A stretch of DNA of 64,000 bases from Candidatus Poribacteria bacterium (GTDB taxonomy: Bacteria; Poribacteria; WGA-4E; WGA-3G). The notes under the pieces are model-generated. The model was not told where the DNA came from, did no database searches, and saw only the letters and a list, made by a program, of their open reading frames with translations. Of the stretch, positions 37,164-61,744 are shown in pieces. Position numbers and translations under genes: made by a program. Each line of letters opens with the position of its first letter. Within the stretch, counting starts at the first letter, position 1. Location: assembly GCA_028820635.1 (NCBI GenBank), contig JAPPIG010000064.1:195074-259073 (forward strand), in the 5' to 3' direction.

Positions 37164-37940
37164 GTGCGCAAATTTCTACAATTTACAACGGGACTCGCTG
37201 CAATATTGATGCTGTTTATTATCGTCTCACCATCGTATGCGGGTTTGGACGATAAATCGCTCGTATTATACCTTTCCTTTGATGAAGGCAAGGGGGGCAC
37301 TGCCAAAGATAGCTCTGAATATGGACATGATGGCGAACTTATCAAAGATCCTACATGGGTTGATGGACAATTTGGTGGCAAGGCACTTGAGTTTGATGGT
37401 ACAAAAGGACAATATGTTATGGTACCTATTAACGATACTTTACAGCTAAGAGAACAGTTTACCATAGCATTTTGGGTCAAACGTGGAAATCAACAAATTC
37501 GGGCATGGAACTATATGGTTTCTGCTGGTTCACTTGTCTGGGCAACTATTTTTAATAACGATAATAAAAAAACTTATCTCTATTCCAAAGATCCAGGTTG
37601 GTCTCCAGAAGCTATTTCTGATGTAGAGCAACCTGAAGATTGGGTACATATTACTGTAACACATGATCCTAAATCTGAGTCTGCAATTTACTATGATGGT
37701 GATAAAGTCGGATCTGATAATAACCCGGCCCAAATCATTGAGATTGACGGTTCTATTATGGTTGGGGCAAGGCACCCTGGTCAGGAATTTTTTACTGGTA
37801 TAATTGATGAGGTGCATCTCTTTAATAGAGTCATTACCGAAGACGAGATGAGTACAATTATTAATGGTGAATTTACACCGGTAGAACCTGCGGAGAAATT
37901 GGCTACAACGTGGGGTGTCATTAAAATGGAACGCCACTGA
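37164..37940 (+). CDS. secreted LamG-domain protein, paralog 3
   Basis: GTG start after AAGGAGG. Signal peptide ...LMLFIIVSPSYA, LVLYLSFDEGKGG motif, C-terminal tail PVEPAEKLATTWGVIKMERH. Confidence 0.8.
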   Translation: MRKFLQFTTGLAAILMLFIIVSPSYAGLDDKSLVLYLSFDEGKGGTAKDSSEYGHDGELIKDPTWVDGQFGGKALEFDGTKGQYVMVPINDTLQLREQFTIAFWVKRGNQQIRAWNYMVSAGSLVWATIFNNDNKKTYLYSKDPGWSPEAISDVEQPEDWVHITVTHDPKSESAIYYDGDKVGSDNNPAQIIEIDGSIMVGARHPGQEFFTGIIDEVHLFNRVITEDEMSTIINGEFTPVEPAEKLATTWGVIKMERH

Positions 37941-37951
37941 TAGGTTAGGTA

Positions 37952-37990
37952 AAATAGGGCAGAGAGTACTCTCTGCCCTATTTTAGTTAA
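37952..37990 (+). terminator. rho-independent terminator after LamG paralog 3
   Basis: Perfect 15-bp stem AAATAGGGCAGAGAG / CTCTGCCCTATTT with loop tact, then TTTTAG. Confidence 0.75.
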
Positions 37991-38135: not shown

Positions 38136-38201
38136 GTCGCGATTCGGAGATCGCTCCTACAGAAGTCTTGTGTATTGTAGGAGGGAACTCCGATTCCCGA
38201 C
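38136..38201. repeat. palindromic intergenic repeat element, copy 1 (arms A-spacer-B)
   Basis: GTCGCGATTCGGAGATCGCTCCTACAG ...13 nt... TGTAGGAGGGAACTCCGATTCCCGAC. The arms are imperfect reverse complements. The spurious ORF 38047..38235 (..RFGDRSYRSLVYCRRELRFPT..) is a translation of it. Confidence 0.7.
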
Positions 38202-38248: not shown

Positions 38249-41200
38249 ATGTCAGAGGAGAGGGAAATTAAGTTGAAGGCACAAGTAAATTTCATAAAAA
38301 TCAGTTGCATATTGATGTTGATTTTAGTCGGTAGTGTTGATGCACAACAGAATCTGGCACAAGAGGCTTACGCGATCTTTGAACAGTCGTGTCTAATATG
38401 TCATGGTGAAAATGGTTCCTACAGGGAATCGCTCATCATTGAGCATGCAGCACTCATTAAAGGTGGCACAGTTGTTCCCGGAAACCCTGATGCCTCCGTA
38501 TTCTTTCAACGACTCATTGAATCAAACGTTTCCAAACGGATGCCACTCGGACAACCACCGCTTGACTCCGAAGCAATTACGACGATTCGGCAATGGATTT
38601 TAGCAGGCGCCCCCGATTGGAGTGACACTCCCAGACCAAAACCCGACTTCATTACAAACGGGACGATGCTCGGAACAATTGAAAATCACGTCAACTCACT
38701 CACACCGTTTGACCGTTCCTTCGCTCGCTATTTCACATTAACACATCTCTACAACGCAGGTGAGACAACTGAAGCACTCAACGCCTATCGGCGCGCCCTC
38801 TCAAAACTGATTAATAGCCTCTCTTGGGGACGCCAAGTTGTCAAACCGCAGCCGATTGATGCAGAACAAACTATTTTCTATATTGACCTGCGCGACTACG
38901 AATGGGATGTCCGAAACGATGCATGGACACAGATTGAGCAGGCATACCCTTACAAAATGACGTTTGATGCCCCAACACAAACACATCTCCACGAAAAACT
39001 GACGACCCTACAGCAAGAGATGAACTGTGAAGTGCCGTTTGTCCATATAGATTGGTTTCTTGCGACTGCCTCGCTACCACCGCTCTACCATGACATTCTC
39101 GCGTTGCCCAAAACAGACCGTGAATTAGAGGCATCACTTGAGGTGTTCGTTACCGAAAACCTCCTAAATGCACCGGGAAAACGCGTTTGGCGTGCAGGTT
39201 TCAACAATTCGGGTGTTTCAAGGCATAATCGCGTTGTTGAGCGTCACATATCACGGTATGGTGCATATTGGAAAAGTTATGACTTTGCGGGAAGTGCGGA
39301 ATCGCAGAATATCTTTACACATCCGCTTGATTTCATACATGACGGTGGCGAAATTATCTTTAACCTACCGAACGGTTTACAAGCATATTATCTTGTAGAT
39401 GGTGAAGGAAACCGTCTTGATGTAGCACCGACAGACATTGTTTCTAATCCCGCTGTCAGTGATCCTGCTGTGCGTAATGGACTTTCCTGCATTGGCTGCC
39501 ACACGGAAGGGATGAAGACGTTTGAAGACGAAGTGCGTGCTGCTGTTGAAGAAGCTGACAATCCACCTTTTAACAAAGATAGGGCTTTAAATCTCTATGT
39601 AGAAAGAGCAGTGATGGCTGATCTTGTAGCGGAGGATACGCAACGTTACAGGACAGCACTTGAAGCAGCAGGCGGTGTTTTTGGTGGTATTGAACCGGTC
39701 CAGCGATTCCATGAGGCGTTTCAAGGTCCGCTTGATGCTGCACACGCTGCAGCTGCGGTTGGATTTGAAACGGAGGTGTTTCTTGAAAAAATCAGCGAGA
39801 ATGTGAGTTTACAAAACTTATTAGGCACACAAATATTAGAAAACAGCACCGTCAAACGAGATACATGGACGTATCATTTTGAGAAAGTGATCTCGCTCCT
39901 GAATACGCCAGATACAATACTTCCACCCGTTGAACAACGCCCTGAGCGTATTCCTGGTGCCACTGTTCACATCCCCGATGCACAGCTACGAGCATCGATT
40001 GAGAAGAAACTCGGCAAAGCGTCCGGGGACCCAATTACGATAAAGGAAATGAAAAATCTTCCACAAAGGTACACGCTTCCAATAGATATACATACATCAG
40101 GAGTTGAAAATCTTGAGGGAATCCAATTCGCGACCAATTTACAACACTTATCTATTTCATACAGTTCAGTAACCGACCTATCACCACTGTCTGGACTTAC
40201 AAAATTGGAACGTCTATCTCTTCGCGAGATAGCCAGAGATAGAGCACCCAACGGTAGTATCCTTAAGCACCACAACCTTGATCTATCACCTTTAGAAGGA
40301 TTAACCAAATTAAAGTGGTTATATATTGTCAAAACCAGAATAGACGATCTTTCACCGCTTTCAAAGTTGAATAATTTGAGGGGCCTTACACTGTATGGTT
40401 GTCCCAATCTGCGCGGTTCTCCCGATAACATCTCTGACATATCACCCTTAGCCGCATTAACTAATTTGGGTGCTCTTAATCTGTCAAATAACAACATCTC
40501 TGACATATCACCCTTAGCCGCATTAACTAATTTGGGTGCTCTTTATCTATTTAACAACAACATCTCTGACATATCATCCTTATCCGCAATACCTCATAAT
40601 TTCTTTACGCTTGATCTGGGACAAAATAACATATCAGATATTTCGCCTCTGGCAAACATGCAAGGATTAAGAAAACTACTTTTAGATTCCAACAATATAT
40701 CAGATGTTACACCTCTGGCAAACTTACATCGATTAGAAGGACTACTAATACAGCATAATGACATATCCGACATATCGCCTCTGAACAAGTTACGCGAACG
40801 GACAAATAAGGTATTTTGGCACGACAACCCTGGTTTCCCGCAGGGAGGACCTGAAATGATAGACTCATGGGTATGGGGAGTCATCCCAGCAGAGGAAATC
40901 AAAGATCACTCTGACCCTGGCATACCTGGAGAAATTATTTATATAAATAGTCAGGTTAGCTTTGCCAGAGATGCGGATTTGCTTTTAGATGTAACTGATG
41001 GCTCGTTAAGCGAATTAGAGGTTGCTACTAACGGGGCAATCGTGGGAAATCCTGTTGTCGGAGAACACGTATGGACACCACACAAATTCAAACGTCCTCC
41101 CGGCGAATATGATGAAGATTTTTATACCCGTAGGCAAAACACTCTTAAAATACCGCCTTATGGTTGTGTCGTTTATGGTTCAGTTACCTTGTATTCACCT

Positions 41201-42538
41201 CGTGAACAACAGATAAATATGTTTGACTCAAGTGCGGAAGGGCATAAAATCTGGCTTAATGGGGAGTTAGTTCGTGACTGGAGAATTCCAGTGCATCTAA
41301 CGGCATGGACTAATGGTAGGAATTCGCAATGGGGTAGGTGGCTTCAATATCCTCTGGATTATACAGCGGTTTTTCCTGTTACGCTCAAACGTGGGCGAAA
41401 TGTCTTATTGATTGCGATGCGTCTGAAAAAACCAGGTGATCTTTGGGGCCATTTCGGATTTGAACCTGACGCGGAATATACGTTATCAAAAGGCATCGGA
41501 TACGCCTTATCTCAAGATAATATCTTCGCGGGTGATACTTTTACCCTCACTCTTAATGCTGAAAACCTGATCGATTTAGCGGGATGGCAAGCGGATATAG
41601 CGTTTGACCCGAATATGCTTGAAGCGGTTGAAGTTACCGAAGGTGATTTCTTGAAGCAGGATAACGGAAATACCTACTTCCAAGCTGGTACGATTGATAA
41701 CACAGCGGGCAAAATTACAGGACTCTTGTCGGCACGGAGCACACAAAATGGTGTCAGTGGTATAGGGCACCTACTTTACGTAACATTCATCGCAAAAGCA
41801 ACTGGTGAAACCAAAGTAACACTGGAGAACTACGAATTCGGGTCGAGCACGGGGGCAATTATACCATCTGCATCACCAAATATAATACTTGCCGTAGAAG
41901 CTGTAGAAAAATATTCTAAATGGGATATAAATCAGGATGAACAAATCGACATTCTTGATCTGGTGCTTGTCGCACAGGACTTAGGGGCAGATACTCCGGC
42001 TAATGAACGAACCGACGTAAATGGCGACGGTGTCATCAATATCCAAGACATTATTCTTGTGGGGCAACACATCAATGAAACAGAAACCGCTGCTGCACCA
42101 CCTATACTTGCAATAGATGACGAAGAACTCATGCCTGATCTGGTCCAAACATGGATAGATCAAGCACAGGCTGAAAACGACGGTTCGCTTGCTTTCCGAC
42201 AAGGTATAGAGAATCTTGAGAGGCTATTAGCATCACTAATTCCTGAAAAAACAGCACTGCTCGTAAACTATCCGAATCCGTTTAATCCGGAGACGTGGAT
42301 ACCGTATCACCTCGCCAAACCTGCAGAGGTTACTTTGAAAATCTATGCTGCGAACGGTGCGGTTGTTCGGACATTGGCATTAGGGCATCAGGCAGCGGGT
42401 ATCTATCAGAGTCGTAGCCGTGCAGCGCATTGGGATGGCAGAAACAGTGTTGGTGAGTCTGTGGCAAGCGGAATCTATTTCTATATGTTAACCGCAGATG
42501 ACTTCACCGCAACACGCAAAATGTTAATTCTGAAATAA
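38249..42538 (+). CDS. giant secreted mosaic protein: PSCyt1-type cytochrome-c module, LRRs, cohesin-like module, dockerin, T9SS C-terminal sorting domain
   Basis: Signal peptide. FEQSCLICHGENG...VPGNPDASVFFQRL...MP matches the Planctomycete cytochrome C (PSCyt1) pattern, with a second CIGCH motif. About 12 internalin-like 22-aa LRRs (NNISDISPLAALTNLGAL). A cohesin-like beta-sandwich (..LAGWQADIAFDPNMLEAVEV..). Dockerin repeats (DINQDEQIDILDL...DVNGDGVINIQDI). The C-terminus NYPNPFNPETWIPY...SGIYFYMLTA...KMLILK is a Por_Secre_tail-like T9SS sorting domain. Confidence 0.85.
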   Translation: MSEEREIKLKAQVNFIKISCILMLILVGSVDAQQNLAQEAYAIFEQSCLICHGENGSYRESLIIEHAALIKGGTVVPGNPDASVFFQRLIESNVSKRMPLGQPPLDSEAITTIRQWILAGAPDWSDTPRPKPDFITNGTMLGTIENHVNSLTPFDRSFARYFTLTHLYNAGETTEALNAYRRALSKLINSLSWGRQVVKPQPIDAEQTIFYIDLRDYEWDVRNDAWTQIEQAYPYKMTFDAPTQTHLHEKLTTLQQEMNCEVPFVHIDWFLATASLPPLYHDILALPKTDRELEASLEVFVTENLLNAPGKRVWRAGFNNSGVSRHNRVVERHISRYGAYWKSYDFAGSAESQNIFTHPLDFIHDGGEIIFNLPNGLQAYYLVDGEGNRLDVAPTDIVSNPAVSDPAVRNGLSCIGCHTEGMKTFEDEVRAAVEEADNPPFNKDRALNLYVERAVMADLVAEDTQRYRTALEAAGGVFGGIEPVQRFHEAFQGPLDAAHAAAAVGFETEVFLEKISENVSLQNLLGTQILENSTVKRDTWTYHFEKVISLLNTPDTILPPVEQRPERIPGATVHIPDAQLRASIEKKLGKASGDPITIKEMKNLPQRYTLPIDIHTSGVENLEGIQFATNLQHLSISYSSVTDLSPLSGLTKLERLSLREIARDRAPNGSILKHHNLDLSPLEGLTKLKWLYIVKTRIDDLSPLSKLNNLRGLTLYGCPNLRGSPDNISDISPLAALTNLGALNLSNNNISDISPLAALTNLGALYLFNNNISDISSLSAIPHNFFTLDLGQNNISDISPLANMQGLRKLLLDSNNISDVTPLANLHRLEGLLIQHNDISDISPLNKLRERTNKVFWHDNPGFPQGGPEMIDSWVWGVIPAEEIKDHSDPGIPGEIIYINSQVSFARDADLLLDVTDGSLSELEVATNGAIVGNPVVGEHVWTPHKFKRPPGEYDEDFYTRRQNTLKIPPYGCVVYGSVTLYSPREQQINMFDSSAEGHKIWLNGELVRDWRIPVHLTAWTNGRNSQWGRWLQYPLDYTAVFPVTLKRGRNVLLIAMRLKKPGDLWGHFGFEPDAEYTLSKGIGYALSQDNIFAGDTFTLTLNAENLIDLAGWQADIAFDPNMLEAVEVTEGDFLKQDNGNTYFQAGTIDNTAGKITGLLSARSTQNGVSGIGHLLYVTFIAKATGETKVTLENYEFGSSTGAIIPSASPNIILAVEAVEKYSKWDINQDEQIDILDLVLVAQDLGADTPANERTDVNGDGVINIQDIILVGQHINETETAAAPPILAIDDEELMPDLVQTWIDQAQAENDGSLAFRQGIENLERLLASLIPEKTALLVNYPNPFNPETWIPYHLAKPAEVTLKIYAANGAVVRTLALGHQAAGIYQSRSRAAHWDGRNSVGESVASGIYFYMLTADDFTATRKMLILK

Positions 42539-42796
42539 GTGGACAAGAGAAATTATACGTTGACGCATAACACAATCTTGTGTTATAACAAGCAGTGAGC
42601 ATCGCGGGATGTAAAAAAAACATTTTCAGGACAGACGCAAATTGAGCAGAAAAAGAAGATATTAGACTTAAAAAAGTTCGTCGCTATTTGGTATCTTAAC
42701 CTTCTAAATTCTCCAACCCTTCTTTATCCCCTATCAAGGAGTAGAGAGACTTTTGAACTGTCGCGTCTGTCCTACATTTTTTAAAAGGAGAACACC

Positions 42797-43063
42797 ATGC
42801 CATATTCTGATTATACCTCCGAAGCCATCGTCGCTCGCGGTGAGGAAATTTATCAACAGTTTCGTGACGAACTTGAATCTCAGTACAAAGGACAGTTTTT
42901 TGTGGTTGACATTAAAACGGAAGATTATGAAATCGCTAACGAGGATTTGGTCGCTACAGAACGCCTACTGGCCAAGCATCCTGATGCTGTCACTTACGGT
43001 TTGCAAATCGGCTTTGGAGCCGCCTATCGTCTCGGCTTTAGAATTTCGGTGCCGACACAATGA
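42797..43063 (+). CDS. small hypothetical protein (88 aa)
   Basis: Strong RBS AAAGGAG 6 nt upstream of the ATG. No recognisable catalytic motif. Contains KGQFFVVDIKTEDYEIANEDL...HPDAVTYGLQIG. Confidence 0.5.
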   Translation: MPYSDYTSEAIVARGEEIYQQFRDELESQYKGQFFVVDIKTEDYEIANEDLVATERLLAKHPDAVTYGLQIGFGAAYRLGFRISVPTQ

Positions 43064-43197
43064 TTAGACATTATAATGATTTAATTTGAATTAAGGTTTA
43101 CCGAGCGTCTTGGACCTCTTGAGTTCCGTAGAACGCTATGTTTATAGAGCGTATCTCATAAATAGGATTTGTTGGTTCATTATCAGTTGATTCTCTT

Positions 43198-43252
43198 TGT
43201 AGGAGGGAACTCCGATTCCCGACAGGTCGCGATTCGGAGATCGCTCCTACAG
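43198..43252. repeat. palindromic intergenic repeat element, copy 2 (arms B-A, tight loop)
   Basis: TGTAGGAGGGAACTCCGATTCCCGAC ag GTCGCGATTCGGAGATCGCTCCTACAG: same two arms as copy 1, in swapped order. Confidence 0.7.
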
Positions 43253-43334: not shown

Positions 43335-44648
43335 ATGGAATCGCACATAAACCTTATTCAAATTCGCAAATACACAATACGGACGTTAAGATACGTAACG
43401 ATACTTATCCTCTGTAGCGGATTAGGGCACATTTCCCATGCCAACCCTCCCAACGAATACTTCCAACGCGGCGTAAAATATTTTGAAGAAGGTCGTTATA
43501 GTAAGGCATTACAATCTTTTGACAAAGCCCTGCAATCTCAAACAGCAGATGCCGATCCTAATTGGTTTGCCGAAATTCATTTCCAAAAAGCAACCGCTTA
43601 CCGCGCGTTGGAGGAGCATGTGAAGGCTGTATCGGAATACAAGGCAGCGATCGCGCTCAACCAAAATTCTGCAGTTTTCTACAACGCACTCGGAATTACG
43701 CACTCGGAACTCAAGCAATATACTGCCGCACTTAATGCTTATAAGAAGGCATTACAGTTGTCCCCAATGACAGCAGAACCACACTATAATATCGGGTTGG
43801 TTTATCTGAAACAGGGAACTTTTCCGCTTGCTGTAGATGCGTTTAAAGAAGCGGTTACTATTGATGCAAAATGGTCAGATGCCCATAGCGGACTTGCTGA
43901 GGCATACTTAAAACAAGAGTTTCTTTCTCAAGCAGAAAAATCTTATGTGAAGGCAGTTCGTCTGAATCCAAGTGGAATCGGTGCGAATTTGGGTTTAGGT
44001 CAGGTATATGCTAAGCAGACACGGTATGATGACGCGATAACAAAGTTTAAGAAAGTTATTGATATCCAACATGATAACACGGATGCACACTATCAACTCG
44101 CCCAGATATATATCAAACTTGGGGAAAAAGAAAAAGCATCATCAGCAATGGAGTTTTTTAAAATTCTCCGCCACACTGATCCACTTCTTCAAAAAGCCCA
44201 GAAGTATGTCAAAATTCATCCAGATGATCCGAAAGGCTATAACAATCTCGGTATTGTTTACTTGACGCGCAAGCGGTATGACAAAGCAATTGAAAGCTAT
44301 AAACGCGCAATTTCACTGTCCCCTACTTTAGCCTCTTCCCACTACAATTTAGGACTTACCTATCACAAACAAGGAAATATAAAACTCGCAATTGAGGCAT
44401 ACCAAAAAGCAATCTCTGCAGATGCAACGCTTGCCATTGCCCATAATAATATCGCTGTTTGCTACACTGAATCGCAAGCGGATCTTGAAAAAGCACTATC
44501 CCACGCACAAACCGCCACTGACCTCGCGCCAACTGAGGCGAATTATTGGGATACGCTCGCCACTGTTTACACTCAGCTTGGATTAAACAGTGAAGCAAAA
44601 CATGCCCGCCAAAAGCAGATTTCCCTCCTAACTACGTCGAAAAAATGA
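43335..44648 (+). CDS. TPR-repeat protein with N-terminal signal/anchor
   Basis: About 10 TPR units (e.g. AEIHFQKATAYRALEEHVKAVSEYKAAIALNQ). The ORF-track start at 43257 abuts the repeat; the ATG at 43335 gives a hydrophobic N-terminus. Confidence 0.7.
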   Translation: MESHINLIQIRKYTIRTLRYVTILILCSGLGHISHANPPNEYFQRGVKYFEEGRYSKALQSFDKALQSQTADADPNWFAEIHFQKATAYRALEEHVKAVSEYKAAIALNQNSAVFYNALGITHSELKQYTAALNAYKKALQLSPMTAEPHYNIGLVYLKQGTFPLAVDAFKEAVTIDAKWSDAHSGLAEAYLKQEFLSQAEKSYVKAVRLNPSGIGANLGLGQVYAKQTRYDDAITKFKKVIDIQHDNTDAHYQLAQIYIKLGEKEKASSAMEFFKILRHTDPLLQKAQKYVKIHPDDPKGYNNLGIVYLTRKRYDKAIESYKRAISLSPTLASSHYNLGLTYHKQGNIKLAIEAYQKAISADATLAIAHNNIAVCYTESQADLEKALSHAQTATDLAPTEANYWDTLATVYTQLGLNSEAKHARQKQISLLTTSKK

Positions 44649-46345
44649 GATGTGTGTGTCACCTTCTACTATGCTTGACTTTCTTGAGTGCTCCCGCGTA
44701 TACAGAGGTTCAATTTGTTGATGTAACTACCACTGCGGGAATTGATTTTCAACACGTAGACGGTAGAACTGGTGAAAAATATCTTATTGAAACACTCGGT
44801 TCAGGTGCGCTTTTCTTTGATTTTAACCGTGATGGTAACCTTGACCTGTATATTGTTAACGCTGCACACACACCATCGCCTATACAAACAACAGAACCGT
44901 CCACAAATTCTGCTGATCTCCCGAAAAATTTGCTTTATCAGAACAATGGAGATGGCACTTTTACTGACATTACCGAAAAAGCAGGTGTTGGCGACACCGG
45001 ATATGGTGTTGGTTGTGCTGCTGCAGATATTAACAACGATGGCTATCCCGAAATATATATAACAAATTTTGGAGACAACCGCCTCTATTACAACAATGGT
45101 GATGGCACTTTTACTGACATCACCGAAAAGGCAGGTGTTGGCGATAAACGTTGGGGAACAGGTTGTGCTTTTCTGGATTATAACTTAGATGGATACGTAG
45201 ACCTCTATGTTGTTAACTATATGATATTTTCTACTGAGGGAAACCAAGGGTGGGAGTTACGTGGTACCCGTATCTATTGTAGCCCTGTGGATCAAATGGA
45301 TAACAGTCGTTTCAAGAGTGAACCAGATATTCTCTATCGTAATAACGGAGATGGCACTTTCACAGATGTCACCACTGCAGCAGGAATTACGCATCGCTCC
45401 CTTGGGCTTGCTGTCGCTGTTGGAGATTACGATAACGATGGCGACCCTGACTTACACATTGCTAACGATATGGAACCTGACCTACTATATGAAAATAATG
45501 GTGATGGGACTTTTACTGATGTTACAGACTTTACCGGGACAGGATATGACGAAAACGGTATCCCTGGTAGCGGCATGGGGAGCGCATTTGGGGATTATAA
45601 TAACGATGGATACTTTGATTTAGTTGTAAGCAATGCTTCTGCTCAACATGTAATCCTCTATCATAATGACAATGCTCAGTTTTTTACAGATGTATCCTTC
45701 TCTTCCGGCATCGGTGCGGTGACTCTACCATACTTTAAGTGGGCAGTTGATTTTTTAGATTACAACAATGATGGTCTTCAAGACATCTATGTTTCCAATG
45801 GACATCTTCAGGATACCATTGAACTTTTTTCGGATGCCACTTATGCACAAACAGACCTGCTATTCCAGAACAATCACCGAAACGGAAAACACACTTTTTC
45901 CGATGTTTCTGCCCGAGTCGGGTTAACACAACTGACCAAAATGGTAGGTAGAGGTGCAGCCTTTGGCGACTACGATAACGACGGGGATATTGATATTTTT
46001 CTGAATCACTCCAATCAACCTGCTAAACTTCTCCGCAACGATGGTGGAAATACTAACAATTGGACCGCTATTCACACTATCGGTACGCAAAGCAATGCAT
46101 CAGGGATCGGCACGAAAATTATTTTAAAATCAGATGCACTCTCACTTATTAAAGAGGTTCGTAGCGGTTCCAGCTATCTCTCACAGAACGATCTCCGCGT
46201 TCACTTTGGACTTGGAAAGAACACAAAGATTGACTCGCTTGAACTTCACTGGCCAAGTGGACATAAGGATAGGTTTTCTAATTTAAAAACAAATCAAATT
46301 CTTCGTATTAAAGAGGGACATGGACTTGTAAATACAACAAAGTGA
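44645..46345 (+). CDS. CRTAC1-family protein: FG-GAP/VCBS beta-propeller repeats plus C-terminal ASPIC/UnbV domain
   Basis: Repeated NGDGTFTDITEKAGVG...DINNDGYPEIY units; C-terminus VRSGSSYLSQNDLRVHFGLGKNTKIDSLELHWPSG (UnbV_ASPIC signature). Confidence 0.75.
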   Translation: MRCVCHLLLCLTFLSAPAYTEVQFVDVTTTAGIDFQHVDGRTGEKYLIETLGSGALFFDFNRDGNLDLYIVNAAHTPSPIQTTEPSTNSADLPKNLLYQNNGDGTFTDITEKAGVGDTGYGVGCAAADINNDGYPEIYITNFGDNRLYYNNGDGTFTDITEKAGVGDKRWGTGCAFLDYNLDGYVDLYVVNYMIFSTEGNQGWELRGTRIYCSPVDQMDNSRFKSEPDILYRNNGDGTFTDVTTAAGITHRSLGLAVAVGDYDNDGDPDLHIANDMEPDLLYENNGDGTFTDVTDFTGTGYDENGIPGSGMGSAFGDYNNDGYFDLVVSNASAQHVILYHNDNAQFFTDVSFSSGIGAVTLPYFKWAVDFLDYNNDGLQDIYVSNGHLQDTIELFSDATYAQTDLLFQNNHRNGKHTFSDVSARVGLTQLTKMVGRGAAFGDYDNDGDIDIFLNHSNQPAKLLRNDGGNTNNWTAIHTIGTQSNASGIGTKIILKSDALSLIKEVRSGSSYLSQNDLRVHFGLGKNTKIDSLELHWPSGHKDRFSNLKTNQILRIKEGHGLVNTTK

Positions 46346-46471: not shown

Positions 46472-47293
46472 ATGGCAATTACGGATGCAATGCCAGAACT
46501 CAAGCGTAAACTACAATTCTTCCCTGTTGAAAACGAAAACCCATCAACGTTGACACCTCAGCAAATCCAACACTTTAATGAAAACGGATTTATCAGTCCT
46601 TTAGACGTTTTCTCTGAAGCAGAAATCTCGCAACACCGTGCGTATTTTAACCAACTTATGGAAAAAGTTTTGGCGGACGGTGGAAACGGTTATTCCATTA
46701 ACGGATGGCATACACGTTGTGCTGGCATTCATGACCTCATTACTGAAGACAGAATACTGGATTATGTCCAAGACCTGCTTGGTGAAAACCTTATCTGTTG
46801 GGGGACTCACTACTTCTGCAAACTTCCTGGTGATGAAAAACAGGTAAGTTGGCATCAAGATGCGTCTTACTGGCCCCTCTCGCCAAGTAAAACCGTCACA
46901 GTATGGCTCGCAATTGATGATGCCTCCGTTGAAAACGGTGCGATGGCTGTTATTCCAAAATCACATTTACACGGACAGATTGCTTTTGAAAGAAGCGCAG
47001 CAGAGGAAAAGAATGTACTTGGTCAGACTGTTCATGAACCGGAACAATTTGGCGACGCGCCTGTGCCTTTTGAGATGAAAGCAGGGCAGCTTTCGTTGCA
47101 TTCGGATTTACTATTGCACGGTTCAGAACCAAACACATCAGACAGGCGGCGATGCGGTTTAACCATGCGATTTGTCCCACCAGAAGTCCAGGCATCGAAC
47201 AATTGGAACCAAAGGGCTATTATTGCCAGAGGCACTGATCCGAATAGGCATTGGGTTCACAACCCACGTCCTGCTGAGGATACCCTTCCGTAA
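46472..47293 (+). CDS. phytanoyl-CoA dioxygenase (PhyH) family Fe(II)/2-oxoglutarate oxygenase
   Basis: WHQDASYWPLSP ... VWLAIDDASVENGAMAVIPKSH ... HGSEPN: HxD...H facial triad of the PhyH family. Confidence 0.8.
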   Translation: MAITDAMPELKRKLQFFPVENENPSTLTPQQIQHFNENGFISPLDVFSEAEISQHRAYFNQLMEKVLADGGNGYSINGWHTRCAGIHDLITEDRILDYVQDLLGENLICWGTHYFCKLPGDEKQVSWHQDASYWPLSPSKTVTVWLAIDDASVENGAMAVIPKSHLHGQIAFERSAAEEKNVLGQTVHEPEQFGDAPVPFEMKAGQLSLHSDLLLHGSEPNTSDRRRCGLTMRFVPPEVQASNNWNQRAIIARGTDPNRHWVHNPRPAEDTLP

Positions 47294-47323: not shown

Positions 47324-48634
47324 ATGGATATAAATAATAGCACACGAAGCGTGTCCCGCTACTTCTCAGAGTTTGTTAATCTCCCAAGACGTATCCTTTT
47401 TGCTGCATTTGCTATTTCCGCTGCTGCGAGTTTTCTTTTATGTGGTTATGAATTTATCCGGGCAGTCTCAGATTCCTTATTCATTGAAGTATACACGGCA
47501 AAAAACCTTCCGTGGGTAATGACGGCTGTTCCACCCAGTGTGCTTTTAATTCTTTGCCCCTATGGACTTTTCCTCTCGTGGCTTGGTGCCACGCGCACCT
47601 TAGCGATAACCTCTATTCTATCAGGGGCTTTGATCTTATCATGCTACTTTGCACTTTCAAGCGGGATAGGTTTCGCTGCTGCTATTATTTATGTTTTTCG
47701 TGAAGCGTACATTGTAATCATCCTTGAACAATTCTGGTCTTTTGTCAACAGTACTCTCAAATCTAAACAAGCAAAAACAATAAATGGACCCTTTTGTGCA
47801 ATTGCCTCAGTCGGATCTGTTATCGGAGGGAAACTTGTAGCAAGATGGGCAGAAACGCTGGGATCAGAAACGCTACTTGTGTTCGCCGCCAGTTCCCTTA
47901 TACCAGCGGCAATTTTCGGTGTAATCGCTTACGCCCTTGCTGGGGAACCGAAACCTACTGTAGCTGAGGAAGGTGGACGACGTGGACACTTAGGTCTAAA
48001 GACGTTTTTTAGTTCTAAATATTTGGTTTTCATAGGTTTGCTGATTATAAGTACTCAAGTCATCTCAACTGTACTTGATCTCCGATTCAAAGGTCTGGTA
48101 GAAATGGATTTTCCTGTCAAAGATACCAGAACTGCGTATATCGGCAACTTTTATGGAAACCTCGGCGCGGTCTCAGCCGTTTTGCAACTGATTGTTGTAC
48201 CTTTAGCACTCCGATTTGTCTCTATCCGGATTATCCATATCGGCATTCCGATCATGCACCTGATTAACGGGTTAGTTCTGACTCTTAAGCCATCGCTTGG
48301 TACTGCAGCAAGAGCCTTTCTAACATTTAAAGCGCTTGATTATTCACTTTTTCGTGCTGCCAAAGAATTATTTTATATACCGCTTTCCTATGATGAACGT
48401 TACCGCGCTAAACAGATTATCGATTCTTTCCTATACCGTTCTGCCAAAGGTGGAAGTGCGGGTGTCATTGCATTAATTGGTCTGGGTATAAAAACTATTC
48501 CCGGTATGGCCTATTCCATTGCAGCTATGGCAGCATCATGTATATGGGGTGGACTTGTCACGAATTTGACATCACAATATCAAAAGTTAGAAAAAACCGA
48601 TAAAAACGTTGACAATGAAACTTCCATTGTGTAA
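47324..48634 (+). CDS. 12-TM transporter, MFS superfamily / nucleotide-transporter (NTT/TLC)-like
   Basis: 436 aa with about 12 TM helices. The N-terminal region YEFIRAVSDSLFIEVYTAKNLPWV resembles the NTT/AAA-family N-terminus. Family assignment is tentative. Confidence 0.55.
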   Translation: MDINNSTRSVSRYFSEFVNLPRRILFAAFAISAAASFLLCGYEFIRAVSDSLFIEVYTAKNLPWVMTAVPPSVLLILCPYGLFLSWLGATRTLAITSILSGALILSCYFALSSGIGFAAAIIYVFREAYIVIILEQFWSFVNSTLKSKQAKTINGPFCAIASVGSVIGGKLVARWAETLGSETLLVFAASSLIPAAIFGVIAYALAGEPKPTVAEEGGRRGHLGLKTFFSSKYLVFIGLLIISTQVISTVLDLRFKGLVEMDFPVKDTRTAYIGNFYGNLGAVSAVLQLIVVPLALRFVSIRIIHIGIPIMHLINGLVLTLKPSLGTAARAFLTFKALDYSLFRAAKELFYIPLSYDERYRAKQIIDSFLYRSAKGGSAGVIALIGLGIKTIPGMAYSIAAMAASCIWGGLVTNLTSQYQKLEKTDKNVDNETSIV

Positions 48635-61678: not shown

Positions 61679-61744
61679 GTCGGGAATCGGAGTTCCCTCC
61701 TACAATAGATAAGATTTCTGTAGGAGCGATCTCCGAATCGCGAC
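61679..61744. repeat. palindromic intergenic repeat element, copy 3 (reverse orientation), intercistronic between wza and wzc
   Basis: GTCGGGAATCGGAGTTCCCTCCTACA ...14 nt... TGTAGGAGCGATCTCCGAATCGCGAC. The spurious ORF 61618..61899 (..RFGDRSYRNLIYCRRELRFPT..) is a translation of it. Confidence 0.7.

Follow-up and report, generated by a model that had tools for sequence, protein, structure and literature searches.

Described relatives and layout of the protein

Cohesin and dockerin modules outside cellulosomes are known from Archaeoglobus fulgidus (cohesin 2xdh) and from Clostridium perfringens (cohesin and dockerin-like modules of GH33/GH84 proteins), and these are the closest described counterparts of the cohesin-dockerin part of the protein examined here. 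In contrast to them, this protein belongs to a Gram-negative candidate phylum and carries a fixed cassette of cohesin, dockerin, linker and sorting tail behind a two-haem head and leucine-rich repeats (LRRs). For the head, the closest known proteins are cytochrome P460 and cytochrome c'-beta (PDB 8brk, 7s5o, 6hiu, 2je3 and 6amg), to which it has no sequence-level match, and the corresponding domain lies within a larger module of 540 aa that also has helical parts and a further class-I cytochrome c. The FoxE Fe(II) oxidoreductase and the Planctomycete PSCyt1 cytochromes have only ~90 residues in common with the protein, and the Planctomycete companion domains (i.e. PSCyt2, PSD1 and others) were absent in a Pfam scan. 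Internalins (i.e. Listeria InlA/InlH class 1) share 22-residue LRRs and an N-terminal cap, and internalin models gave the best NCBIfam matches; however, the protein lacks both the internalin-type inter-repeat Ig domain and the LPXTG anchor, the likeness being one of repeat type only. Type A cargo of the T9SS (type IX secretion system) of Bacteroidota (TIGR04183) likewise combines a Sec signal peptide with a threshold-passing Ig-like C-terminal domain and, as in such cargo, the tail is found on many unrelated heads within the same genomes. Differences are that the phylum lies outside Bacteroidota and that a helical linker always precedes the tail. The preliminary description had supposed the overall architecture to be undescribed and a literature search found no paper describing it, nor any tying Poribacteria to cohesin or dockerin, or T9SS to cohesin-dockerin.

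Features of the gene are collected in Table 1. The open reading frame agreed with that given before and the NCBI annotation contains an identical protein (P0001; 100%), given as 1421 aa. Translation probably begins at the TTG at 38273, as judged from the sequence, because the 1421-aa length fits and a Shine-Dalgarno-like GAGGAGAGGG precedes this codon. The signal peptide was called by inspection of the sequence, and alignment showed the A-Q-Q/E-N-L junction at its end to be conserved among homologues. A promoter and terminator scan found no terminator-like site on the + strand 3' of the gene, contrary to the claim that the gene has its own terminator; the number of matches did not exceed that in shuffled sequence and a clear hairpin (37958-37979) is part of the upstream LamG gene. 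This LamG gene, previously called a paralogue, was rejected both as paralogue and as partner, as its best BLASTP match to the protein was not significant (E = 0.59) and its neighbouring position is not conserved.

Table 1. Position of the gene, its protein modules and its haem-binding motifs
Feature	Position	Strand	Residues	Remarks
Whole ORF	38249..42538	+	1429 aa plus stop	
Sec-type signal peptide	38249..38344	+	1-32	hydrophobic core FIKISCILMLILVGSV; cleavage motif VDA|QQ
Class-I cytochrome c domain	38345..38623	+	33-125	PSCyt1 type
Haem 1 motif	38390-38404	+	C48xxC51H52	C48-L-I-C51-H52
Uncharacterised region	38624..39943	+	126-565	~440 aa; helices and one beta-sheet; single compact module with the cytochrome c domain
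Predicted beta-sheet sub-domain, then second haem motif	39185..39502	+	~313-418	fold may resemble cytochrome P460 / c'-beta
Haem 2 motif	39488-39502	+	C414xxC417H418	C414-I-G-C417-H418
Internalin-like LRR region	39965..40828	+	573-860	N-terminal cap and 9 clear 22-residue DxSPL repeats
Jelly-roll domain	40844..41503	+	866-1085	resembles GH2 sugar-binding / galactose-binding-like fold
Cohesin module	41504..41893	+	1086-1215	
Dockerin module	41918..42088	+	1224-1280	two Ca-binding loops
Conserved helical linker	42089..42262	+	1281-1338	always accompanies the tail in this family (family HMM matches)
C-terminal sorting-type Ig-like domain	42263..42535	+	1339-1429	T9SS type A / FlgD_ig type

The order of modules is signal peptide, two-haem head (~540 aa), LRR array, sugar-binding-like jelly roll, cohesin, dockerin, helical linker and T9SS-type C-terminal domain. 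All five modules named in the preliminary description (i.e. PSCyt1, LRRs, cohesin, dockerin and sorting tail) held in Pfam and NCBIfam searches; the Pfam models PSCyt1, LRR_4, Cohesin and Dockerin_1 passed their cut-offs, whereas Pfam Por_Secre_tail did not and the tail was recognised by NCBIfam TIGR04183. The full order, with both CxxCH motifs ~366 aa apart, was present in 118 of the 120 best homologues, the other two lacking one end only. All 78 best genomic loci belonged to Candidatus Poribacteria, with several genomes containing 2-4 copies. The protein had been presented as a combination of parts from unrelated systems, which suggests an oddity; instead, the architecture is fixed in nearly all of the 120 best homologues, and the design is stable and repeatedly duplicated. 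The gene is one member of a large, conserved and so far undescribed family in sponge-associated Poribacteria. Clustering of ORFs at the 78 poribacterial loci revealed no conserved operon partner (e.g. a redox partner), the large clusters being antisense shadow ORFs inside the gene itself. On balance, we lean slightly towards the view that the gene belongs, as one of several paralogues, to a family of modular proteins that occurs throughout Poribacteria and whose members are exported and probably displayed on the surface, and infer the mechanism set out in the following sections.

The two-haem head and the leucine-rich repeats

The PSCyt1 model matched aa 48-99 with a borderline score (23.2 bits versus a cut-off of 22). 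A CxxCH motif and axial Met, a cytochrome c fold and periplasmic export, as predicted, place this domain among class I c-type cytochromes; M98-P99 is invariant and its Met is, from the alignment, the likely axial ligand of haem 1. An AlphaFold2 model of aa 30-570 was obtained with high scores (pLDDT 92.9; pTM 0.91), and the haem portion is far larger than the 'PSCyt1 plus a second CxxCH' of the preliminary description. No Pfam or NCBIfam model covered aa 126-565, and a Pfam scan of 46 head members returned only cytochrome c models, confined to the first ~100 aa. Similarly, a head profile searched against PDB sequences matched cytochromes over the first ~100 aa only and retrieved no P460 or c'-beta chains, a Foldseek comparison of the head with the PDB gave no match at E<=0.001, and the Pfam Cytochrome_P460 model had no match at E<=1 in the protein or the 46 homologues. 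Fatty acid cis/trans isomerase (PF06934) was rejected as a candidate, as its matches of ~80 residues were below the gathering threshold (12.7-14.6 bits versus 25); weak matches occurred in 4 of the 46 homologues (best E 1.6e-4).

Both CxxCH motifs were invariant in an alignment of 20 full-length homologues, in which most invariant columns fell within aa 30-570, making the head the most conserved part of the protein. Eight residues (i.e. C48, C51, H52, M98, P99, C414, C417 and H418) were also invariant in 46 distant homologues. Head homologues formed 5780 representative clusters, 1572 of them at E<1e-30. Elsewhere the head is fused behind a Ser/Thr kinase in five proteins, behind FHA in two, and also behind TPM and 7TM domains, or stands in front of TPR, EGF, WD40 and FGE-sulfatase domains; by analogy, the Ser/Thr kinase and FHA fusions resemble the use of an extracytoplasmic sensor or redox domain. 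After the protein crosses the inner membrane via Sec, two haems c would be attached to the head in the periplasm, pairing a cytochrome c for electron transfer (His/Met haem) with a further haem in a P460/c'-beta-like pocket. The head may then serve as a unit for redox reactions or for binding small ligands (NO, NH2OH, CO, O2), a role in keeping with the use of this module, in other phyla, as the portion of Ser/Thr kinases and FHA proteins lying outside the cytoplasm. A broader proposal, offered tentatively and with considerable doubt, is that the head is an unrecognised, very widespread extracytoplasmic haem module in which a class-I cytochrome c is coupled to a P460/c'-beta-like haem that binds ligands. 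In Planctomycetota and other phyla this module would provide Ser/Thr kinases and FHA proteins with their sensor domain; in Poribacteria, a cohesin-dockerin network at the surface would carry it, with export through the type-A tail relying on machinery distinct from the classical Bacteroidota T9SS.

The internalin-like type of the LRRs was borne out by LRR_4 (91.3 bits versus a cut-off of 27) and LRR_8 matches, but their number was lower than the ~12 counted before, with nine clear DxSPL repeats following an N-terminal cap, which LRR_EndoS matched at aa 575-688. Scores for the class 1 internalin models NF033189 and NF033188 were far below threshold (118.6 versus 1600 and 113.4 versus 1050 bits, respectively). 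Homologues contain 1-3 copies of the jelly roll. In the proposed mechanism, LRRs and jelly roll would bind host or matrix ligands. A related explanation makes the protein a 'eukaryote-like' LRR adhesin, whose repeats bind sponge proteins (e.g. for evasion of phagocytosis) and whose haem head is accessory or vestigial. Sponge symbionts are enriched in LRR proteins, which have been discussed as host-interaction factors of Poribacteria (PMC3909097), and LRR number differs widely among paralogues (proteins of 1353-2338 aa), as for a diversifying binding surface. Against this, conservation is highest in the head and neither haem site varies among thousands of distant relatives; a vestigial head is thereby ruled out and the explanation as a whole is very improbable. 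The adhesin explanation is otherwise compatible with the family of surface-displayed proteins favoured here, differing mainly in emphasis.

Cohesin, dockerin and candidate partners

The Cohesin model (PF00963) matched aa 1094-1204 with 43.9 bits (cut-off 24.1) and structure prediction gave the nine-stranded beta-sandwich of cohesins; by sequence and predicted fold, the module is a cohesin. Dockerin_1 (PF00404) matched aa 1226-1276 with 33.6 bits (cut-off 22.9), assigning the adjacent module to type I, and solved dockerins were also matched (2y3n_B, E 9.7e-7; 3kcp_A, E 1.8e-6). Residues of its two loops (D1226-N1228-D1230...D1237 and D1256-N1258-D1260-G1261...D1267) were invariant in 20 homologues. 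The fold modelling suggested in the preliminary description upheld the cohesin, while the dockerin model reached moderate confidence only (pLDDT 60-74), the dockerin identity being supported by sequence and intact calcium loops.

In other Poribacteria genomes, homologous loci had candidate partners in their flanks, namely five LRR/GHL15 proteins ending in dockerin and one two-cohesin protein, together with proteins in which the same cohesin/dockerin/tail cassette follows a WD40 or LRR head. The only enzymes with dockerin in these flanks were GHL15-like. By contrast, family HMMs run against all six-frame ORFs of the window (i.e. the whole 64-kb stretch of DNA analysed) found the protein itself and no further cohesin, dockerin or tail genes. 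All partner-type proteins inspected had N-terminal signal-peptide-like sequences; for those with dockerin only, the route across the outer membrane is not obvious. The dockerin-ended GHL15 and two-cohesin proteins of these flanks lend support to a possible cellulosome-like surface network. At the surface, the cohesin would capture dockerin-ended proteins and the protein's own dockerin would plug into another cohesin, building a network that is cellulosome-like yet non-cellulolytic. An intramolecular, self-capped cohesin-dockerin state is possible.

The C-terminal tail and the proposed route to the surface

The C-terminal domain matched TIGR04183 at aa 1341-1427 of 1429 (29.2 bits versus a cut-off of 23), whereas Pfam Por_Secre_tail (PF18962) was below its cut-off (17.9 versus 27 bits). 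FlgD_ig matched aa 1353-1416 (36.5 bits versus 27) and FlgD structures were matched at E 1e-3. The tail contains YPNPFNPET, GIYFY and a final KMLILK, and the YPNPF / GxYFY / K-x-L-I-L-K motifs are typical of TIGR04183 type A tails. With its TIGR04183 domain at the extreme C-terminus and a signal peptide by inspection, the protein has the make-up of T9SS type A cargo. Invariant residues of the linker include W1302 and D1311-G-S1313, and its helices were modelled with low confidence (model residues 431-465). Linker and tail are common to 3939 proteins; a search with them for other cargo or a PorU-like protein yielded mostly short C-terminal fragments and was uninformative.

These features are what would be expected if the protein were canonical T9SS cargo, its tail being recognised by a complete, perhaps divergent, poribacterial T9SS that translocates the folded haem protein, after which a PorU-like sortase would cleave the tail and link the protein to surface lipopolysaccharide. 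PorU, PorZ and other T9SS proteins have similar tails, and the transport by T9SS of proteins already folded in the periplasm would suit a c-type cytochrome. However, the 20 neighbouring ORFs that were annotated, in the 29-63 kb part of the window, included no T9SS gene. Kamke et al. 2014 (PMC3909097) reported TIGR04183 tails on many poribacterial repeat proteins but no Por secretion structural genes in poribacterial single-cell genomes, which were incomplete, and PMC11611037 describes T9SS as limited to Bacteroidetes. As no structural genes were found in poribacterial genomes (Kamke et al. 2014), T9SS export is unproven, and we regard this route as rather unlikely. Of the earlier claim of T9SS export and surface attachment, the tail stands; absence of a T9SS, which would count against that claim, is partly borne out by these incomplete genomes.

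A second explanation dispenses with export across the outer membrane, the protein being a periplasmic or inner-face redox or sensor protein with a tail that is merely a FlgD-like Ig structural domain, and with cohesin and dockerin assembling a periplasmic complex. The higher score for FlgD_ig than for Por_Secre_tail, the lack of reported T9SS genes in the phylum (PMC3909097) and the periplasmic orientation of the two-haem head in kinase and FHA fusion proteins agree with this. On the other hand, the tail follows many unrelated heads and in every case ends the protein, as a sorting signal would and a structural domain would not. Furthermore, extracellular proteins are where one typically finds LRR arrays, sugar-binding-like jelly rolls and cohesin/dockerin pairs, and a periplasmic location appears improbable. 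With the machinery not seen in the annotated part of the window and reported absent from single-cell genomes, surface localisation is inferred from the tail alone. Under the favoured reading of a surface-displayed family, the folded protein would be brought to, or kept at, the cell surface through the C-terminal domain.

Among uncultured symbionts of marine sponges, Poribacteria rank with the most abundant, and the likely interface with the host is formed by their surface proteins. This family appears, from its sequences, to couple a probable redox or gas-binding haem unit with host-binding repeats and self-assembling cohesin-dockerin modules, suggesting that extracellular proteins are organised into a network in a phylum for which none has been described. 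It also provides a test case for the question raised in 2014 of how Por-tailed poribacterial proteins exit the cell when T9SS genes had not been found. Relatives of the two-haem head number in the thousands; the head is kinase-fused elsewhere and is without a family model or solved structure. Work on a single member would allow a large set of 'hypothetical cytochromes' to be annotated and might establish a new class of periplasmic sensors based on haem.

Reading frame and surroundings of the target gene

The target is a real, unbroken reading frame of 1429 codons, as the preliminary description had it. An identical NCBI protein (P0001, 'cohesin domain-containing protein [Candidatus Poribacteria bacterium]') has 1421 aa, a length that matches a TTG start at 38273, 3' of the Shine-Dalgarno-like stretch GAGGAGAGGG. 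The first ATG (window 38249-38275) lacks a ribosome-binding site, and homologues likewise begin with 'MK..' at the position of this TTG. The window is chromosomal DNA with murC, ftsQ, ftsA and ftsZ, then a radical-SAM gene and a LamG-domain gene upstream of the target, and TPR, FG-GAP/ASPIC and PhyH genes downstream. Poribacterial genomes feature TPR, ASPIC/UnbV and VCBS (FG-GAP-like) repeat genes and phyH clusters, and FG-GAP/ASPIC and PhyH domain types are abundant in them (Kamke et al. 2014, PMC3909097). An ATP/ADP translocase-like gene further downstream is of note in a symbiont. A 104-aa ORF, with a probable ATG at 42798 after AAGGAGAA, separates the target from the TPR gene. Two antisense ORFs of 100-180 aa were rejected as genes; they merely shadow conserved LRR coding sequence on the opposite strand, which alone explains their recurrence in homologous loci.

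The LamG gene, initially taken for a paralogue, is unrelated to the target; its 258-aa product is secreted-looking and matches Pfam Toxin_R_bind_N in addition to LamG/Laminin_G_3. This gene is followed by a GC-rich hairpin and T-run, and the 308-nt spacer 5' of the target holds this terminator-like hairpin together with a REP-like palindromic repeat. The target had also been credited with its own terminator; a scan of the + strand downstream of the gene found none. The repeat consists of two 26-nt sequences of imperfect complementarity (GTCGCGATTCGGAGATCGCTCCTACA / TGTAGGAGGGAACTCCGATTCCCGAC) and has three exact intergenic copies in the window, as compared to a chance expectation of none. Two copies bracket the target region, one upstream and one past the small downstream ORF.

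Features of the window and of homologous poribacterial loci (L-handles; coordinates within each locus)
Feature	Location	Remark
LamG/Laminin_G_3 protein	37164-37940	upstream
GC-rich hairpin and T-run	37958-37979	after LamG gene
REP-like pair	38136-38201; 43198-43251; 61679-61744	
Target	38249-42538 (+)	
Antisense ORFs	39967-40506 (-); 40594-40902 (-)	rejected
104-aa ORF	42753-43067	downstream
FG-GAP/ASPIC (UnbV) repeat protein	44645-46345	downstream
PhyH dioxygenase	46472-47293	downstream
TLC-type ATP/ADP transporter-like protein	47324-48634	downstream
GHL15-dockerin proteins	L039:3897-5894; L036:4801-7047; L026:8459-10003; L033:65-1234; L023:10052-12046	adjoin family genes
Two-cohesin protein	L066:10136-11761	
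WD40 propeller-cohesin-dockerin-linker-tail protein	L024:3660-5594	
LRR-GHL15-LDL-receptor-class-B propeller-tail protein	L019:2709-5672	
Tandem family genes (L036 and L041)	OZ242029.1 4859229-4874762	

Domain composition and conservation of the family

Domain calls were judged against Pfam gathering thresholds, which were exceeded by LRR_4 (91.3 bits), Cohesin (43.9 bits vs 24.1), Dockerin_1 (33.6 bits vs 22.9), FlgD_ig (36.5 bits vs 27) and, marginally, PSCyt1 (23.2 bits vs 22); the T9SS type A sorting domain TIGR04183 passed in NCBIfam (29.2 bits vs 23). A sequence search of solved structures matched dockerins (E ~1e-6) and a cohesin (E 1.7e-3), and both calcium loops of the target dockerin are intact and invariant in the homologue alignment. 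The matches were therefore not restricted to generic Ig-like or EF-hand domains, and the cohesin and dockerin calls stand. The LRRs were also upheld, at nine clear repeats and a cap instead of the approximately 12 first counted.

The target had been presented as a mosaic; its module order is common to all 120 best database homologues. A cytochrome c, a large head domain, LRRs, 1-3 jelly rolls, 1-2 cohesins, a dockerin, a linker and a tail were found in 118 of these proteins, the other two each lacking one end only, and all 120 contain two CxxCH motifs ~366 residues apart. Varying LRR and jelly-roll numbers account for most of the spread in length (1291 to 2338 aa). When one genome per species was scanned, 590 relatives emerged, and the best 78 loci all belong to Candidatus Poribacteria. 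Several of these genomes carry 2-4 family copies, in one case in tandem, and the single-cell genome WGA-3G has at least two; the architecture is not mentioned in a study of WGA-3G (Kamke et al. 2014, PMC3909097). The family is real, conserved and apparently undescribed. It is a new combination of known module kinds, sharing its cohesin-dockerin modules with non-cellulosomal cohesin-dockerin proteins, its sorting-type tail with tail-sorted surface proteins and its LRRs with 'eukaryote-like' proteins. In several assemblies (loci L009, L011, L012, L016, L020, L032 and L045), family genes are broken into 2-3 consecutive ORFs; these frameshifts or pseudogenes may stem from misassembly of long repeats or from true decay of paralogues.

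The two-haem head

Residues 30-570 are the best-conserved stretch of the target in the homologue alignment. Pfam and NCBIfam recognise only the first ~100 head residues, as a class-I cytochrome c, and neither has a model covering the remaining ~440. Searched exhaustively with HMMER, 1.84 billion cluster representatives yielded 5780 head relatives, 1572 at E<1e-30; the named ones belong to Planctomycetaceae and Chthonomonadaceae. In a 46-member alignment (~40% identity), C48, C51, H52, M98, P99, C414, C417 and H418 (numbered on the full target protein) are invariant. An AlphaFold2 model from this alignment formed one compact unit (pLDDT 92.9, pTM 0.91), for which Foldseek found no solved relative of the whole head. 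The head is one member of a large, uncharacterised family of haem domains.

The head is located behind a cytoplasmic Ser/Thr kinase in five distant homologues (P0311, P0341, P0359, P0369 and P0373), behind an FHA domain in two (P0277 and P0295) and behind a TPM or 7TM domain in others; elsewhere it precedes TPR, EGF, WD40, FGE-sulfatase or prenyltransferase-like domains. Some kinase- or FHA-headed relatives end in a C-terminal FGE-sulfatase domain. Such variety of context is typical of extracytoplasmic domains with a sensory or catalytic role, and the kinase and FHA fusions suggest a family of haem-based transmembrane signalling proteins that has no family model.

Partner-type proteins, export and proposed function

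Partner-type proteins were surveyed in the 6-kb flanks of poribacterial family loci. Five proteins with a GHL15-like (hypothetical glycosyl hydrolase) domain, which LRRs precede in three cases, end in a dockerin without a sorting tail. These share the classical enzyme-dockerin layout and are candidate cargo of the family cohesin. In five loci, a protein of ~710 aa with an LRR-jelly roll-dockerin-linker-tail order is encoded immediately 5' of the family gene; in a sixth, such a protein is encoded on its 3' side. Alongside the other tail- or cohesin-bearing proteins (see table), the cohesin-dockerin-linker-tail cassette is evidently a reusable unit. Every partner-type protein inspected starts with a signal-peptide-like sequence. 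Poribacteria thus have the parts that a cohesin-dockerin assembly system would need, with tail-bearing cohesin proteins that could hold dockerin-ended ones. No partner-type cohesin, dockerin or tail protein was found in the present 64-kb window, and no conserved operon partner across the family loci.

Export by a type IX secretion system had been proposed from the tail, which does fit the type A model with its characteristic motifs. The machinery was not matched: no T9SS-like gene occurs among the 20 annotated neighbouring ORFs, the system is described as confined to Bacteroidetes in the abstract of PMC11611037, and Por secretion structural genes were not found in poribacterial genomes, which were incomplete (Kamke et al. 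2014, PMC3909097). With this weak point in both neighbouring ORFs and literature, T9SS export is therefore an unlikely, minority explanation. The preferred reading makes the tail a signal for sorting or anchoring.

The family protein would be exported by Sec, acquire two haems in the periplasm and undergo tail-dependent surface display, where cohesin-dockerin contacts could network it and the LRRs and jelly roll may bind ligands. The His/Met cytochrome c would exchange electrons, in either direction, with a P460/c'-beta-like haem in the head, which would bind small ligands (such as NO, NH2OH, CO or O2). In the sponge mesohyl such molecules come from nitrifiers and host cells, and a plausible, if speculative, role would be to detoxify or sense them at the cell surface. 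The leads of greatest value are the head and the unexplained route of export, ahead of the mosaic aspect of the protein.
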